Shown here one piece after another: positions 9,049 to 15,894 of a stretch of DNA of 64,000 nucleotides. Location: assembly GCA_000965745.1 (NCBI GenBank), contig CP009479.1, positions 1,184,001 through 1,248,000 on the forward strand, in the 5' to 3' direction. The notes beneath the pieces were generated by a model. It did no database searches, was not told the origin of the DNA, and was given only the letters and a program-made list of their open reading frames with translations. A program made the translations under genes and the position numbers. The DNA is from an uncultured archaeon. GTDB taxonomy: Archaea > Thermoplasmatota > Thermoplasmata > Thermoplasmatales > Thermoplasmataceae. Position 1 is the stretch's first letter. Each line of letters begins with the position of its first letter.

Positions 9049-10029
9049 ATGAAGAGCTTCTTTGAATGGGAGATGGGCCTCCATGGAAAGGTAGAGGAAG
9101 TTAATGAGACACTTCTAAGGAATATCTATACTGCTCAGGATGAACTGTACAGAATGTCAAAGTATGTCATTGAAGCTGGCGGAAAGAGATTCAGGCCCCT
9201 TCTTACGATTCTGGCATATGAAATAAGCACTTCTGAGCCATATTCAAATATTCTTGACCTTGCAGCAGGTTACGAACTCATACACACCGCAAGCCTGATT
9301 CACGACGACATAATAGATAACGCTACGGTAAGGAGGGGACTTCCTACGCTCAATCATGTGGACGGGGAATCCAACGCAATCGTTGTAGGGGACTACCTTT
9401 TTGCAAAGGCCTATGAACTTGGCTCCAGGTATGGCCCGACAGTATCTAAGATAATGGCGGACGCATCCAGCAACCTCGCCGAAGGGCAGATTCTTGAGGC
9501 AACGAATCTTGGCAACCTGGATCTCCAGGAAGACATATACCTTGAGATAATAAGCAACAAGACCGCAAAATTCTTCGGTGCCTGCGCTGAAGGTGCGACT
9601 ACTGCTGCCAAGGCACCCTATGAGGTCAGGATCAATCTGACGAACTTTGCGTACAACCTGGGCATGGCATTCCAGGTTACTGACGATATAATGGACATTG
9701 TTGGAGACCAGGAGAAGATGGGAAAGCCTGTTCTGGCTGATATAGGGCATGAGGCAATAACGCTCCCGGCAATTTATGCACTGAAGCATGGGAACAGGGA
9801 TGCGAAGGAGACTTTGAGAGCTGCACTGACAGGGGACAATACAATCTCCGGTGATAAGATCAAGACTGTCTTTATGGAAACAGGATCCATAGATTACTCG
9901 TTCCGCAAGGCCAAATCATTCACAGAAAAGGCTCTTGAGTCGCTAGGCAAGACCAAGAAGTCCGCCGACCTCGATCTTCTGATGGAACTCGCACTCATAG
10001 TAATTGACAGGATTGAAGAATTCGGATAA
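9049..10029 (+). CDS. Trans-polyprenyl diphosphate synthase (medium/long chain)
   Basis: GGKRFRP, FARM ASLIHDDIID..RRG, SARM FQVTDDIMD; Ala at -5 of FARM suggests a product longer than GGPP. Confidence 0.9.
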   Translation: MKSFFEWEMGLHGKVEEVNETLLRNIYTAQDELYRMSKYVIEAGGKRFRPLLTILAYEISTSEPYSNILDLAAGYELIHTASLIHDDIIDNATVRRGLPTLNHVDGESNAIVVGDYLFAKAYELGSRYGPTVSKIMADASSNLAEGQILEATNLGNLDLQEDIYLEIISNKTAKFFGACAEGATTAAKAPYEVRINLTNFAYNLGMAFQVTDDIMDIVGDQEKMGKPVLADIGHEAITLPAIYALKHGNRDAKETLRAALTGDNTISGDKIKTVFMETGSIDYSFRKAKSFTEKALESLGKTKKSADLDLLMELALIVIDRIEEFG

Positions 10030-10030
10030 G

Positions 10031-11194
10031 ATGACAACTAGAATAATGCTTTTTACCGGCAAAGGTGGAGTGGGCAAAACGAGTGTCGCAGCAGCAACTG
10101 CTGCCATGATGGCAAGCAGGGGCCTGAAGACCCTGATTATGTCAACGGACCCTGCCCACAGCCTAGCAGATGCTGTCGGAGCCAGAATAGGGCCTGTTAC
10201 AAAGAAGATTGGCGAGAATTTCTATGCACAGGAAGTGAGCGTTCTCGAAGCCATAAGCAGCCACTGGGATGAACTCAAGGGATACCTCACTGGCCTCTTT
10301 CAATCCCAGGGACTAGACCCTGTTTCTGCCGAGGAAATAGCAACGCTTCCCGGGTTCGATGAAGCTTCTCACCTCCTCTATCTCAACGAATATGTCGAAG
10401 CAGGCGAATATGATGTTATTGTTCTTGACAGCGCCCCTACTGGCGAAGCTCTGAAGCTTCTGTCATTCCCCGAGGCGATGTCCTGGTACATGGAGAAGTT
10501 CTTCCCAATAAGCAGGAAAACTGCCAAGATAATCAGGCCAATGGCCAAGCCGTTTTTCAACCTCCCTCTTCCCGACGATTCTGTATTCAGGAGCATGGAG
10601 ACCCTTTACAACAACCTGAGCAAAGTGAGGGGGCTGCTCTTGGATCCTGAAATGACTTCAATCAGGCTCATTTGCAATCCCGACAGGATGTCTGTCAATG
10701 AAACGAAGAGGGCTTACACCTACCTCATGCTTTATGAGTATCCGGTTGACGGTGTTATAGTAAACAAAATATACAGGGAAAATACAGGGCCGTTCTTTGA
10801 GAAATGGAGAAAGTCCCAGGATGAGATAATAAAGGAGATTGAGGACTCATTCGGCGATGTCAAGATATTCAAGTCCTATCTTACGGAGGAGGAGCCTACA
10901 GGCCTGGAAAGGCTGATCGACTTCGGCAGGAGAATTTACGGTGACGACGATCCTTACGACATATTCTACTCGGGAAGGCCAGTCGAGTATATCAGGGAAA
11001 ACGGTGAAAGTATTGTCAAGATAAAGCTCCCATTCGCGGACAAGGAGAACCTGAACCTCTTTAACAAAGGGGGAGAGCTTGTTATAGAAATGGACAACTG
11101 GAGAAGGGTATTTTATCTGCCACAGACTTTTTCAGATAAGAGTCCTGAGTCCGCAGAATTTATTAACCAACATTTACTCATAAAGATGTCATGA
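10031..11194 (+). CDS. ArsA/Get3 family ATPase with C-terminal HSP20/alpha-crystallin-like domain
   Basis: GKGGVGKTS, STDPAHSL, DSAPTG; C-terminal KLPFADKENLNL..GGELVIEMDNWRRVFYLP. Confidence 0.9.
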   Translation: MTTRIMLFTGKGGVGKTSVAAATAAMMASRGLKTLIMSTDPAHSLADAVGARIGPVTKKIGENFYAQEVSVLEAISSHWDELKGYLTGLFQSQGLDPVSAEEIATLPGFDEASHLLYLNEYVEAGEYDVIVLDSAPTGEALKLLSFPEAMSWYMEKFFPISRKTAKIIRPMAKPFFNLPLPDDSVFRSMETLYNNLSKVRGLLLDPEMTSIRLICNPDRMSVNETKRAYTYLMLYEYPVDGVIVNKIYRENTGPFFEKWRKSQDEIIKEIEDSFGDVKIFKSYLTEEEPTGLERLIDFGRRIYGDDDPYDIFYSGRPVEYIRENGESIVKIKLPFADKENLNLFNKGGELVIEMDNWRRVFYLPQTFSDKSPESAEFINQHLLIKMS

Positions 11195-11415
11195 GCACGT
11201 CGGATCAGAAGCAGGGGAGCAACGAAAAACAGAATTCCCAAAACAGCACGGTCATTGAGATAAAGATTTCAATACCCCCATTTCTAGGTGGGAACGTAGG
11301 ATCACTTTTCGACCATCTAGGCCAGGCAGCCAAGGAACTGGCAAAGGCAGGAAGGTCGTTCATCTCTGCAGAAAACCAGCAACCCGTGAAAATGCGCAAG
11401 ATTGAAATAAAATAA
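11191..11415 (+). CDS. Small hypothetical protein coupled to ArsA (amphipathic helix, C-terminal KIEIK)
   Basis: ATGA overlap with the ArsA stop. Confidence 0.7.
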   Translation: MSTSDQKQGSNEKQNSQNSTVIEIKISIPPFLGGNVGSLFDHLGQAAKELAKAGRSFISAENQQPVKMRKIEIK

Positions 11416-13109: not shown

Positions 13110-13937
13110 GTGAGCGAGATCAGAACCATTGAAGATATAAAATTCGTAAAATCAGTAGAACTTGTACCCAGGAAGGAGGGAGGGGTCGAAGACATCCTGG
13201 AGGCCGTGGATATCCTGGGCTCCTCAGCCAATTTCCTCACTTCCCCGGAGAACCCCATGGGAAAGCCCGGCATCGATCCTGTAATGTCGCTATATCTCGC
13301 ATCCAGGAACAGTAATTTTATCGTGATGCCACATATTACTCCTAGGGATAAAAACTCATTATTCGTTTACTCCCAGGTGCTTACTGCACTGAAATTCGGC
13401 ATAAACCACTTTTTCATTATAGGCGGAGATCCGATAGACCAGACTATAGGCGCAAAGGAAGTGCGGGAGATGGATGTAATGGGAATGATATCCGCTATTT
13501 CCGGAGAAGACGGGTACGTCAAGAGGCAGAATGGATATGGCAATTCGATCAGGCTTGGCGCTGCGCTTAACCCTTACAGGGAACAGGAACCTGAGATAGC
13601 TGGAAAGAAGCTGGAAGCAGGGTCCAACTTCTTCATTTCACAGATTCTATACGAGAGTCAATGGTTGAAGAAAGACTGGGTCAAGGAAAGGAAATTTAAA
13701 GTGGTAGCAGGCTTTTTCCCGTTGCGCAAGAAATCACAGCTGAAGTTCGTGAAAAAAATGCATGTCCCGGTTTCTGAAGAAGTTGAGAACAGGATAGAAA
13801 ATTCTGACAACGTCGCGGAAACCTCAAGAAAATTAATATTGGATACAATTGACGACCTCAAGGGCTACATCGACGGAGTCCACATCATGCCCATAGGCCA
13901 CAATGAGATAGCCAGGGACATACTGGAGAGTGTATAG
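13110..13937 (+). CDS. metF: Methylenetetrahydrofolate reductase
   Basis: ELVP, PHITPRD.N, GGDP, AALNP, K.EAG.NFFISQ; adjacent to metE halves. Confidence 0.8.
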   Translation: MSEIRTIEDIKFVKSVELVPRKEGGVEDILEAVDILGSSANFLTSPENPMGKPGIDPVMSLYLASRNSNFIVMPHITPRDKNSLFVYSQVLTALKFGINHFFIIGGDPIDQTIGAKEVREMDVMGMISAISGEDGYVKRQNGYGNSIRLGAALNPYREQEPEIAGKKLEAGSNFFISQILYESQWLKKDWVKERKFKVVAGFFPLRKKSQLKFVKKMHVPVSEEVENRIENSDNVAETSRKLILDTIDDLKGYIDGVHIMPIGHNEIARDILESV

Positions 13938-14852
13938 ATGGCAAAAGTTGAAACACATGTTTACGGCATATACCCAAAAACAGAGAATCTGAGAAAAAAT
14001 ATTAACAGATGGGAACGCGGAAAGATTGAGACAGGAGAAATATATGAGGCATTGCGACAGGAGAAAGAACAGTATTTTACTCTCCTCGACGAGAATAAAA
14101 TCGCCACTTTCACCGATCCGCTTTTCAACTGGTATGATGTTCTCAGGCCCATAGTCCTTCTGTCAGGGGGGTCTCTCGGTCCACTTACAAGATATAAGGA
14201 GAACAACACTTTCTACAGGCTTCCTGAGTTTGAGGAGGTGAAAGGCCTTACAATGGACCCGACAAAGAATGCTGAGGTTGAATCAAACCCCCCGTTTCCC
14301 CTTTACCAGAACGCTGGGTCAAACGGCTTCAGTGCATTTTTACCCTCACCGGTGACCATATACAGGATGTCGCAGGTATCCGAGAAAATCGGAAAAAGTG
14401 ACTTCATAAACAAAATCACGGACAACTATCTTGAAATCTGCAGGAAGTTCGGAGTAAAGAGAACCACCATTTTTGAGTCATTTGAATACGGCAACGAGGA
14501 CATATCTTTCTTGGACAGGCTTTCCAAGGAACTTGATGTTTACCTGATCACAGAGGGAAAGCTGAACGAGGCGACCTTCAAGAACCTTGGTGAAAAGCTA
14601 TACTCGGTCGTGGTCTCAAAGGAGGGCGATATCTCCCTGGCAGCCAAGTATTCAAAGGTTCCGGGCGTGAAACTGCTTGATGCCCACAACACCAAGCTTG
14701 AAAGAGTGGATTCACTCAAAAAGAAGGTTGAAGAACTGTCCGGCGGAATCAATGCGGAAAGCATTGTCGTCACGAATTCAGACTATTATGATTTCCTTCC
14801 CCGCAGCATCGCAGACAGGAAGGTAGAAATTCTCTCTCAGGTAGGTGAGTAA
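13938..14852 (+). CDS. Split cobalamin-independent methionine synthase, N-terminal (folate-binding)-like half
   Basis: GIYPK, TDPLFNWYD, TRYKENNTFYR.P, D.HNTKLE, DFLPRSIA.RK. Confidence 0.75.
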   Translation: MAKVETHVYGIYPKTENLRKNINRWERGKIETGEIYEALRQEKEQYFTLLDENKIATFTDPLFNWYDVLRPIVLLSGGSLGPLTRYKENNTFYRLPEFEEVKGLTMDPTKNAEVESNPPFPLYQNAGSNGFSAFLPSPVTIYRMSQVSEKIGKSDFINKITDNYLEICRKFGVKRTTIFESFEYGNEDISFLDRLSKELDVYLITEGKLNEATFKNLGEKLYSVVVSKEGDISLAAKYSKVPGVKLLDAHNTKLERVDSLKKKVEELSGGINAESIVVTNSDYYDFLPRSIADRKVEILSQVGE

Positions 14853-15894
14853 ATTGACGAACATCAAATTCATTACACAGGAAATAGGAAGTTACAGGAA
14901 GCCAGATTATCTCAGCAAGAAATTCCACACTCTAAAGGGAACGCCTGAGTTCAGGGAAAAAGCTGAGAAAGCAACTCTTGAGACACTTAAGCTATTTGAC
15001 GAAGCTGGTCTGCAGAACATCGGCGTTGGCGGAGAAATGTTCAGGTGGGAAATGTATGAACATCTCGCGGACAACATATCGGGGATCGAATTCTATGGAA
15101 AAGTGAGATCATTCGACAACAGGTACTACAACAAAGGTAGCATAGTCAAGGAAATAACCAGGAAGAACCCGGTACATCTGGACGAGCTGGAGTTTGTGCT
15201 CAACAACACGGAGAAAGCCATAAAGGTACCGATCACGGGACCTTATACGATGATGGACTGGTCATTCAACGAGCACTACAGGGACAGAAGGGAACTTGCA
15301 AACGCTTTTGCTGACATAATCAGAGAAGAGATAAGGGACCTGAAAAAGCTCTGGGATACAAGAAGGAGTGGACAGCTCCTGGAGATCCAGATAGATGAAC
15401 CTGCGGCGACAACTCACCCTGACGAGATGGATATTGTTGTTGAGTCAGTCAACAGGTCATTCGAGGGAATAACCGGAGCCGAATTCAGCGTTCATGTATG
15501 CTACAGCAAGGACTACCGGATGCTTTACAACGTAATGCCAGACCTGAAGGTCGATGGTCTTAACCTCGAGTATGCGAACAGGGATACCTTCAAGCTTGGG
15601 GTCGAGGATGAAGCAAGGCCAGGATATGACGATCTTGCTGATTTTGCGGACATCAATGATCAACTTTCAAGAAGGAAGTTCCTTGGCCTTGGCGTCACAG
15701 ATGTCCATCAGGACACCATTGAATCCGTCCAGCTCATAAAAGACAGGATAGGTTATGCGATGGCATTCATCGAGAACCCGACAAACATCAGGCTCAACCC
15801 TGACTGCGGGCTCAGGACAAGGTCAAGGGAAGTGGCATTCCAGAAATTGAAAAATATGGTGGAAGCGAGAGATCTGGTAATGGAAGAATACTAG
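14845..15894 (+). CDS. metE: Cobalamin-independent methionine synthase, catalytic (Zn) half
   Basis: EIGSYRKP, KVPITGPYT, IQIDEPA, HVCY, NLEYA, NPDCGLRT zinc ligands. Confidence 0.9.
   Translation: MSKLTNIKFITQEIGSYRKPDYLSKKFHTLKGTPEFREKAEKATLETLKLFDEAGLQNIGVGGEMFRWEMYEHLADNISGIEFYGKVRSFDNRYYNKGSIVKEITRKNPVHLDELEFVLNNTEKAIKVPITGPYTMMDWSFNEHYRDRRELANAFADIIREEIRDLKKLWDTRRSGQLLEIQIDEPAATTHPDEMDIVVESVNRSFEGITGAEFSVHVCYSKDYRMLYNVMPDLKVDGLNLEYANRDTFKLGVEDEARPGYDDLADFADINDQLSRRKFLGLGVTDVHQDTIESVQLIKDRIGYAMAFIENPTNIRLNPDCGLRTRSREVAFQKLKNMVEARDLVMEEY

Follow-up and report, generated by a model that had tools for sequence, protein, structure and literature searches.

A stretch of 64,000 nucleotides from the genome of a Thermoplasmatales archaeon (2.23 Mb, single contig; the stretch, hereafter the window, spans positions 1,184,001 to 1,248,000 of contig CP009479.1) encodes a Get3/ArsA-type ATPase with a C-terminal alpha-crystallin domain and, directly downstream, a 74-amino-acid protein that we refer to as the partner. 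A comparison of loci revealed that these two genes are a conserved unit across many bacterial and archaeal phyla. The partner ends in an I-x-I motif, and we propose that this tail may dock on the alpha-crystallin domain of the ATPase, a reading that we hold somewhat likelier to be right than wrong.

The two genes are the second and third of three + strand genes that follow one another head to tail among the open reading frames (ORFs) of the window, the first encoding a prenyl diphosphate synthase. The stop codon of the synthase (TAA, 10027-10029) is followed by a single base and then by the ATG of the ATPase at 10031, and the stop codon of the ATPase overlaps the start of the partner ORF in the sequence ATGA. 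A preliminary description of this DNA had already recorded three coupled genes with these junctions, and they are indeed seen in the sequence. Judging from the spacing, synthase, ATPase and partner presumably form one operon in this Thermoplasmatales family; the sigma-70 promoter and terminator scan of the locus is uninformative for an archaeon. The features of the locus are as follows.

9049-10029, + strand: trans-prenyl diphosphate synthase, predicted long-chain type (326 amino acids; PF00348, E value 4e-67)
10031-11194, + strand: Get3/ArsA-type ATPase, whole gene (387 amino acids; ArsA_ATPase, 293 bits, and ArsA_HSP20, 66 bits)
10031-10999, + strand: Get3/TRC40/ArsA-fold ATPase domain, residues 1-323 (PF02374, 293 bits against a cut-off of 24.3; TIGR00345, 250 bits against a cut-off of 135)
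11000-11194, + strand: alpha-crystallin (HSP20-like) domain, residues 324-386, and stop codon (PF17886, ArsA_HSP20, E value 1.9e-18; 66 bits against a cut-off of 22.5)
11191-11415, + strand: 74-amino-acid partner protein, ATGA-coupled to the ATPase (position and codon pattern; no match in local Pfam and NCBIfam)
11251-11277, + strand: N-terminal strand motif VIEIKISIP, partner residues 21-29 (conservation in alignment A1)
11305-11364, + strand: predicted amphipathic helix, partner residues 39-58 (family consensus H...A..E.LLA.R..ID)
11395-11412, + strand: putative docking-type tail RKIEIK, partner residues 69-74, with I71-x-I73 (conservation; h-x-h-X ends across phyla)

Conservation of the ATPase-partner pair

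Sequence searches alone make the partner family look tiny: direct relatives were found in 10 genomes among 41 relatives, and a profile search with the narrow alignment A1 retrieved 10 proteins among 1.8 billion representatives. A survey by position showed otherwise. The partner lies immediately 3' of the ATPase in 10/10 loci that hold a relative, and genera of the same family that the sequence search had missed carry, after the ATPase, an ORF of 59-66 amino acids that combines an N-terminal strand and a helix with an end of the KIEIK, KINIK or KIDIK form. Throughout the class, almost all fused ATPases have a small ORF behind them that carries a KKIEI-type motif at its end or close to it. Variants of this arrangement were also observed within the class. 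In one family (loci L024, L032, L034, L036 and L038) the downstream gene is larger (144-260 amino acids), and in L024, L032 and L036, the three followed to their last residue, a KVQI or SIPID-type motif stands near, not at, the C-terminus, with an acidic or basic tail behind it. In a further family, a long Lys/Arg-rich extension forms the end of the ATPase itself.

For a cross-phylum survey of gene order, which the preliminary description had proposed, the ATPase alignment served as the probe, one genome was taken per species, and the best 80 loci were examined for taxonomy. These belonged to Archaeoglobaceae, Methanocellales, Methanomassiliicoccales, Chloroflexota, Dormibacterota, Bacillota, Actinomycetota, Acidobacteriota, Spirochaetota and others. 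When all 112 loci with enough downstream sequence were considered, 75 were found to carry a downstream ORF of 35-200 amino acids ending in h-x-h-X, which overlaps the stop codon of the ATPase in 47 of the 75 (by exactly 4 nucleotides in 26) and starts at most 30 nucleotides away in another 22. The background of such ends among the other small ORFs of the same loci is about 3%, or 9% with the true cases included. The linkage of ATPase and partner was thereby confirmed over many phyla, whereas that of the synthase was limited to 14 loci of one family.

The relation between the partner and the alpha-crystallin domain was analyzed in another phylum, because, within the class, a genome that lacks the fused gene mostly has no Get3-family gene at all. 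In 71 sampled genomes of Halobacteriota, the phylum of Archaeoglobaceae, the ArsA_ATPase genes were classed with a local profile and Pfam. A tail-ended ORF followed 13 of the 16 domain-bearing ATPases and none of the 12 domain-less ones in this sample, whose genomes are not independent of one another; one 35-amino-acid ORF among the 12 domain-less genes fits the pattern by chance, and two of the three domain-bearing exceptions stand first in a tandem pair of ATPase genes. The contrast is clear, points in the direction that docking predicts, and supports a tie between the partner and the alpha-crystallin domain. The earlier suggestion of a dedicated partner is thus supported by comparison, in every locus of the family, across phyla and in this sample.

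Tandem domain-bearing ATPases occur in some Halobacteriota (L155/L166 on contig C20 of genome G208, and L161/L165 on contig C24 of genome G225); in G208 the tail-ended ORF follows only the second ATPase, and in G225 the contig ends within the second gene. In four loci from Caldilineales and Chloroflexia (L070, L092, L095 and L125), a partner is absent, and past the alpha-crystallin domain the ATPase runs on for about 35 amino acids that include an acidic stretch and an amphipathic W..LK.R helix. This extension may be a replacement for the partner in cis.

The partner protein and its tail

The codon pattern marks the 74-amino-acid ORF as a real coding gene: in comparison with two orthologues of the same genus, 44 of 76 and 49 of 92 changes fall on third positions, and within its strand and tail blocks the ratios of synonymous to other changes are 6:2, 3:0 and 4:1. 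Its tail is more than chance, as ends of the form [KR][IV]x[IVL][KEDQ] were found in only 2 of 10,397 ORFs of at least 50 amino acids in the genome, one of them being the partner gene. The helix LFDHLGQAAKELAKAGRSFI (residues 39-58) has a mean hydropathy of 0.05 and a hydrophobic moment of 1.87. In alignment A1, E23 and P29 of the strand motif are invariant and I22, I24 and I26 nearly so; A46, E49 and G54 of the helix are invariant, and K70, E72 and K74 of the tail are invariant or nearly invariant. The amphipathic helix, the KIEIK end and the internal IEIKI that the preliminary description had pointed out are all present.

An alignment of 48 partners from many phyla (A3) revealed a core P.E...H...A..E.LLA.R..ID, followed by a charged linker and a K-I-x-I end, and the stretch HLGQAAKELAKAGRSFI of the window partner matches this core. 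Because the core is shared, the partners of different phyla are homologues rather than look-alikes. Their most conserved feature is the I-x-I end, and the helix comes second. Strands of the form h-x-h-x-h-x-x-P were also found in the partners of Archaeoglobaceae, Aminicenantes and some Chloroflexota.

One bacterial partner matched DUF3926 (PF13080) with an E value of 5.7e-6, and none of the 48 partners (0/48) matched PF27253 (AF_1253) in the local Pfam copy. The helix motif of the partner aligns with 94.8% probability to P0015, a protein with a PF27253 match, and an Atlas cluster labelled AF_1253 was among the nearest (score 0.82), which is only a lead. As a lead, then, AF_1253, a recent and uncharacterized Pfam family, seems to include the helix motif; neither PF27253 nor PF13080 has an assigned function. 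In P0015 (399 amino acids) the helix motif lies within a protein with a zinc ribbon and an adenylate/guanylate cyclase domain (PF13240, PF27253 and PF00211), therefore the motif exists outside the ATPase context as well. When longer proteins with the partner fused to another domain were searched for, no ATPase-partner fusion came up and only this helix-bearing cyclase protein did, which is weak evidence either way. A sequence search of the PDB with the partner profile gave nothing under an E value of 0.3, and in literature on DUF3926, ArsA_HSP20, PF27253 and AF_1253 no description of the partner was found. In sum, the partner is described in no paper, solved structure or curated family that we found; the ATPase fusion and the synthase are of known kinds.

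The same type of tail was found on a second protein. Eight loci from assemblies of Bacillota, Spirochaetia and Chitinispirillaceae (L064, L072, L076, L079, L087, L093, L096 and L127) encode a MarR regulator directly upstream of the ATPase, and all eight of these regulators end in a tail of the I-x-I type (KKIDIE, KKIIIEE, KQIPIE, RKIDIQ, KKIRIE, KIKIDE, KIRIEE and HRVEIE). These tails fit the alpha-crystallin domain as a docking site for I-x-I-tagged proteins and suggest that the ATPase may bind its own MarR repressor. If this were true, MarR docking would establish a chaperone-titration feedback loop in some bacteria. The window operon has no MarR gene upstream of its ATPase. Two other upstream proteins of the window, an AsnC regulator ending in LIRLG and an Alba protein ending in IEITLTR, were considered as tail carriers and rejected, as their ends lie within their own folded domains and do not match the tight pattern.

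The placement of the tail was modeled with AlphaFold2 (AF2). At a few loci the partner ORF lies in frame, 0-24 nucleotides after the stop codon of the ATPase, and this stop was read as Gly to give a single chain. The partner region was covered by only 11 rows in the folded alignments, because a block alignment (A5) of fusions, ATPase-only and partner-only sequences misplaced short rows inside the ATPase and was discarded. In the fusion from L008, an archaeon of the same family (460 residues; mean predicted local distance difference test score [pLDDT] 85.5), partner residues 398-449 fall below a pLDDT of 50, and the last ten residues have a mean of 85; among them, DSSP assigns R455-K456-I457 to a strand and I459 to a bridge, which covers the I-x-I motif. 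In the fusion from L068, a member of Chloroflexota (472 residues; mean pLDDT 86.2), a strand was assigned to R467-T468-I469 and a bridge to V471, at a pLDDT of 71-90; only this model contains an N-terminal hairpin (pLDDT 65-69), and its helix is of moderate confidence. Since a DSSP strand needs a hydrogen-bonded neighbor, both models set the tail against a sheet. In two distant lineages the tail is thus modeled as a paired beta-strand, which is supportive, though not decisive, of docking. A complex prediction with two ATPase and two partner chains gave scores of 0.22 and 0.18 (mark 0.32), which count neither for nor against binding.

Family and catalytic motifs of the ATPase

The ATPase is a member of the Get3/TRC40/ArsA-fold family and the sole strong Get3-family match in the host genome. 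The closest solved chains retrieved by sequence search of the PDB are archaeal Get3 proteins, 3zq6 (E value 3e-55) and 3ug6; E. coli ArsA is distant in sequence and Get3d, the alpha-crystallin-domain form known from Arabidopsis and Nostoc, more distant still. The nearest named relatives come from Ferroplasmaceae and Thermoplasmatota assemblies. The fold was judged from an AF2 model of the L008 orthologue, which is 65% identical to the window ATPase: Foldseek aligned it to 3zq6 with an E value of 2.7e-25 and a template modelling score, normalized by target, of 0.78-0.82, and over about 390 columns to Nostoc Get3d (8egk), alpha-crystallin domain included. The model contains long helices at 145-175 and 182-203 and seven strands at 317-387.

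A deviant Walker A motif (GKGGVGKT) is present at residue 10, switch I (DPAHS) at residue 40 and switch II (DSAPTGE) at residues 133-139, so that the P-loop, switch I and the switch II aspartate are all intact. Because all catalytic motifs are kept, the ATPase is probably catalytically competent and its cycle active, unlike that of Get3d. The residue after the TG of switch II is Glu in place of His, as in most alpha-crystallin-domain relatives. The preliminary description had pictured a single-domain ATPase with one Cys and an HSP20-like C-terminus, and that picture holds: ArsA_ATPase matches once, the only Cys is C215, a CxxC motif is absent, and PF17886 covers the C-terminal part. C215 is not conserved among the orthologues, which contain 0-3 Cys residues. 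The chain ends right after the last strand and has no C-terminal extension of its own. A second, divergent ArsA/Get3-like P-loop gene was also noticed in the genome (locus L014, G000:C1:150840-151517; open frame of about 286 amino acids), which scored 75 bits with PF02374 and 81 bits, under the cut-off, with TIGR00345.

Docking proposal, alternatives and known systems

In small heat shock proteins (sHSPs), a C-terminal I-x-I/V motif docks in the beta4-beta8 groove of a neighboring alpha-crystallin domain, as in wheat HSP16.9 (1GME), and such tails drive oligomerization. Starting from the gene order, coupling, conservation, domain tie and family assignments observed above, we infer how the partner docks, what its helix does and which cellular function results, as follows. 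The module would consist of a Get3-fold ATPase with an alpha-crystallin domain and a coupled partner of 60-120 amino acids, itself built from an optional N-terminal strand, an amphipathic helix, a charged linker and a C-terminal I/V-x-I/V strand. The tail of the partner would add as a beta-strand onto the alpha-crystallin domain of the ATPase, in the manner of the sHSP tails, and this docking would hold the helix beside the ATPase dimer, where the partner could serve as an adaptor or could regulate client binding or the ATPase cycle. As a whole, the module would work in the cytosol on hydrophobic segments, as a chaperone or targeting factor, and not as an arsenite pump. The idea of a docking tail had been raised in the preliminary description and gains support from the comparison, through the conserved I-x-I end and its tie to the alpha-crystallin domain. 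Partners occur from Thermoplasmatales to Chloroflexota and Bacillota and, in the Halobacteriota sample, with domain-bearing ATPases only, which would give the alpha-crystallin domain a docking job that can be tested.

Several points weigh against this proposal. The models pair the tail with a sheet that need not be the alpha-crystallin domain or contain its beta4-beta8 groove; moreover, the fusions are artificial single chains, for which AF2 may recall the docking mode of sHSPs, and the helix and N-terminal strand of the partner were modeled at low confidence. About one fifth of the loci have no tail-ended ORF (for example, L051, L066, L067, L069, L073, L084, L088 and L100), and the counts of loci overstate the statistical support because related genomes are not independent.

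Among the alternatives, the partner might be a cross-linker whose N- and C-terminal strands dock on different alpha-crystallin domains and so build higher ATPase oligomers. Two similar strand motifs (IEIKI and KIEIK) are found in the partners of Thermoplasmatales, Archaeoglobaceae, Aminicenantes and some Chloroflexota, and oligomerization through I-x-I tails is textbook behavior of sHSPs. In addition, Get3 of M. jannaschii forms tetramers (PMC6593721). The N-terminal strand is, however, missing in many lineages and was modeled at low to moderate confidence, and for Get3d a dimer was the largest assembly seen (PMC10248533), hence we regard cross-linking as unlikely.

Slightly less probable again is that the partner is a client or plug, with the helix serving as a placeholder or auto-inhibitor in the groove and the tail for self-association or stability. 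The helix is second in conservation, and Get3 is known to bind helices in its groove and to have a lid helix (PMC6593721). Nevertheless, this helix is amphipathic, with conserved His, Glu, Arg and Asp residues and a hydropathy near zero, and is thus unlike a membrane-spanning client; besides, a plug would explain neither the restriction of the partner to domain-bearing ATPases nor the occurrence of the same tail on MarR regulators.

The preliminary description had united all three genes into a polyprenyl or quinone system, in which ATPase and partner would be an ATP-driven chaperone for polyprenyl lipids or quinones, or for their enzymes, and the synthase a functional member. The synthase has two DDxxD motifs (residues 86 and 212), and the Ala at position -5 from the first aspartate-rich motif (FARM), which had been noted beforehand, can be read in its sequence (HTASLIHDDIID); in ELIHTASLIHDD, Ala at -5 is followed by Ser at -4. 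Small residues at these two positions allow long-chain prenyl products. The two DDxxD motifs and the small residues at -5/-4 are shared with long-chain synthases such as HepT (component II), IspB and solanesyl diphosphate synthase. On the heptaprenyl, octaprenyl and solanesyl models the enzyme scored 184, 177 and 168 bits (cut-offs 457, 412 and 383), as compared with 101, 100 and 84 bits for the second polyprenyl synthase of the genome (L012), which has Tyr at FARM -5 and is of the archaeal short-chain, geranylgeranyl diphosphate (GGPP) type. The highest raw scores were obtained with the archaeal short-chain IdsA and GGPP synthase models (205 and 193 bits), also under their cut-offs, and the synthase reached none of the NCBIfam equivalog cut-offs. 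The earlier long-chain reading fits the Ala-Ser pair and the model scores above those of L012, and the enzyme probably makes a long-chain product, most plausibly the side chain of the respiratory quinone.

The order synthase-ATPase-partner and its tight spacing are kept in 14 loci of at least six genera, down to 58% identity of the ATPase, and a lipid of about 750 Da co-purified with Arabidopsis Get3d, in whose hydrophobic chamber it was located (PMC10248533). On the other hand, clustering of all flanking ORFs placed the synthase upstream of the ATPase in the window's own family only, and neither the sister family of the same order nor any other phylum shows this linkage; the neighbors elsewhere are unrelated (MarR, ribosomal protein S3Ae, AMMECR1, ferredoxin, glycosyltransferase), with no recurring prenyl or quinone gene near the module. 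The authors of the Get3d study, who left a lipid role open, considered their lipid likely to be non-specific (PMC10248533). The synthase is therefore a local neighbor outside the conserved core. Since it is linked in one family and the pair is general, the three-gene system shrinks to a family-level operon, and a lipid chaperone seems to us improbable, a little more so than a plug. Still fainter is the chance of a combined case, in which the alpha-crystallin domain would be a general platform for I-x-I-tagged proteins, MarR and its titration loop included, and the module of the window's family would in addition be committed to polyprenyl lipids or quinones.

That the ATPase is a genuine ArsA and drives an arsenite/antimonite efflux pump as its catalytic subunit is very improbable: in favor of it are the ArsA_ATPase match and the genes 6.6 kb upstream (5-2426) for a regulator of ArsR type, a carrier resembling ACR3/SBF and a SLAC1/TDT-type channel, but the protein has one ATPase domain in 387 amino acids instead of two fused halves in a chain of about 580 amino acids, scores 94 bits with TIGR04291 against a cut-off of 650 and contains one Cys, the ars-like genes lie on the other strand with at least five unrelated genes between, and the module is kept in many genomes without ars neighbors. 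E. coli ArsA has three metalloid-binding Cys residues. The earlier verdict that the locus does not serve arsenic resistance is upheld by the single domain, the non-conserved Cys, the low TIGR04291 score and the lack of an ars gene in the operon, and the label 'ArsA' on such genes is misleading.

As for the surroundings, the ArsR, SBF/ACR3-like and SLAC1/TDT genes on the - strand (5-2426) form a tight unit that is not linked to the ATPase operon; between the two lie genes for a TauE exporter, a hydrolase, the AsnC regulator and Alba. Downstream of the operon, after an aldehyde dehydrogenase gene, the region 13110-15894 contains genes for a methylenetetrahydrofolate reductase (MTHFR)-like protein, an unassigned 304-amino-acid protein and a cobalamin-independent methionine-synthase-like protein, all of an ordinary metabolic kind.

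When compared with known systems, the ATPase domain is most similar, in both sequence and fold, to the archaeal Get3/TRC40 proteins that bind tail-anchored proteins (M. thermautotrophicus 3zq6 and M. jannaschii 3ug6). Their chains end after the ATPase domain, whereas the window ATPase adds the alpha-crystallin domain, and their switch II sequence, DTAPTGHT, has His where the window ATPase has Glu. The CxxC zinc motif that canonical tail-anchor Get3 has at its dimer interface is absent here. With sHSPs, the module shares the alpha-crystallin fold and the C-terminal I-x-I peptide; the difference is that the I-x-I motif resides on a separate gene product and the alpha-crystallin domain is fused to an ATPase.

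The closest described architecture is Group 11 of the archaeal Get3 homologues (Farkas 2019, PMC6593721, Table 1), which comprises proteins of Euryarchaeota and Thaumarchaeota with an alpha-crystallin domain. The window ATPase agrees with this group in its one Get3 domain, the lack of CxC/CxxC, the C-terminal alpha-crystallin domain, the intact nucleotide site and the archaeal host. Groups 10 and 11 are both described as lacking CxxC, and Group 11 is listed with a hydrophobic client groove (PMC6593721). The domain fusion, one part of the candidate new system of the preliminary description, is therefore not itself new, being already catalogued both there and as a Pfam architecture (PF02374 + PF17886). 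In that catalogue only the ATPase appears, and no partner gene is described (PMC6593721).

Get3d (Arabidopsis At1g26090, 8elf; Nostoc All4481, 3igf/8egk; Barlow 2023, PMC10248533) likewise combines the Get3 fold with a C-terminal alpha-crystallin domain. The window ATPase is nevertheless nearer to archaeal Get3 (190 bits with 3zq6) than to Get3d (99 bits with 3igf and 50 bits with 8elf), and its 149 bits with the Get3d/NosAFP model NF050088 (cut-off 325) place it outside that clade. Whereas Get3d has an incomplete active site and occurs in photosynthetic hosts (PMC10248533), the P-loop and switches of the window ATPase are intact and its host is non-photosynthetic. The alpha-crystallin domain of Get3d lacks the beta6 loop that serves dimerization and is positioned at the dimer interface, at the Get4 site; its authors described its partners as unknown and noted that new conserved ones would be needed (PMC10248533). 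Get3 homologues with an alpha-crystallin domain span plants, cyanobacteria, many other bacteria and archaea, and the small protein encoded next to the ATPase in the window is a candidate for such a missing partner.

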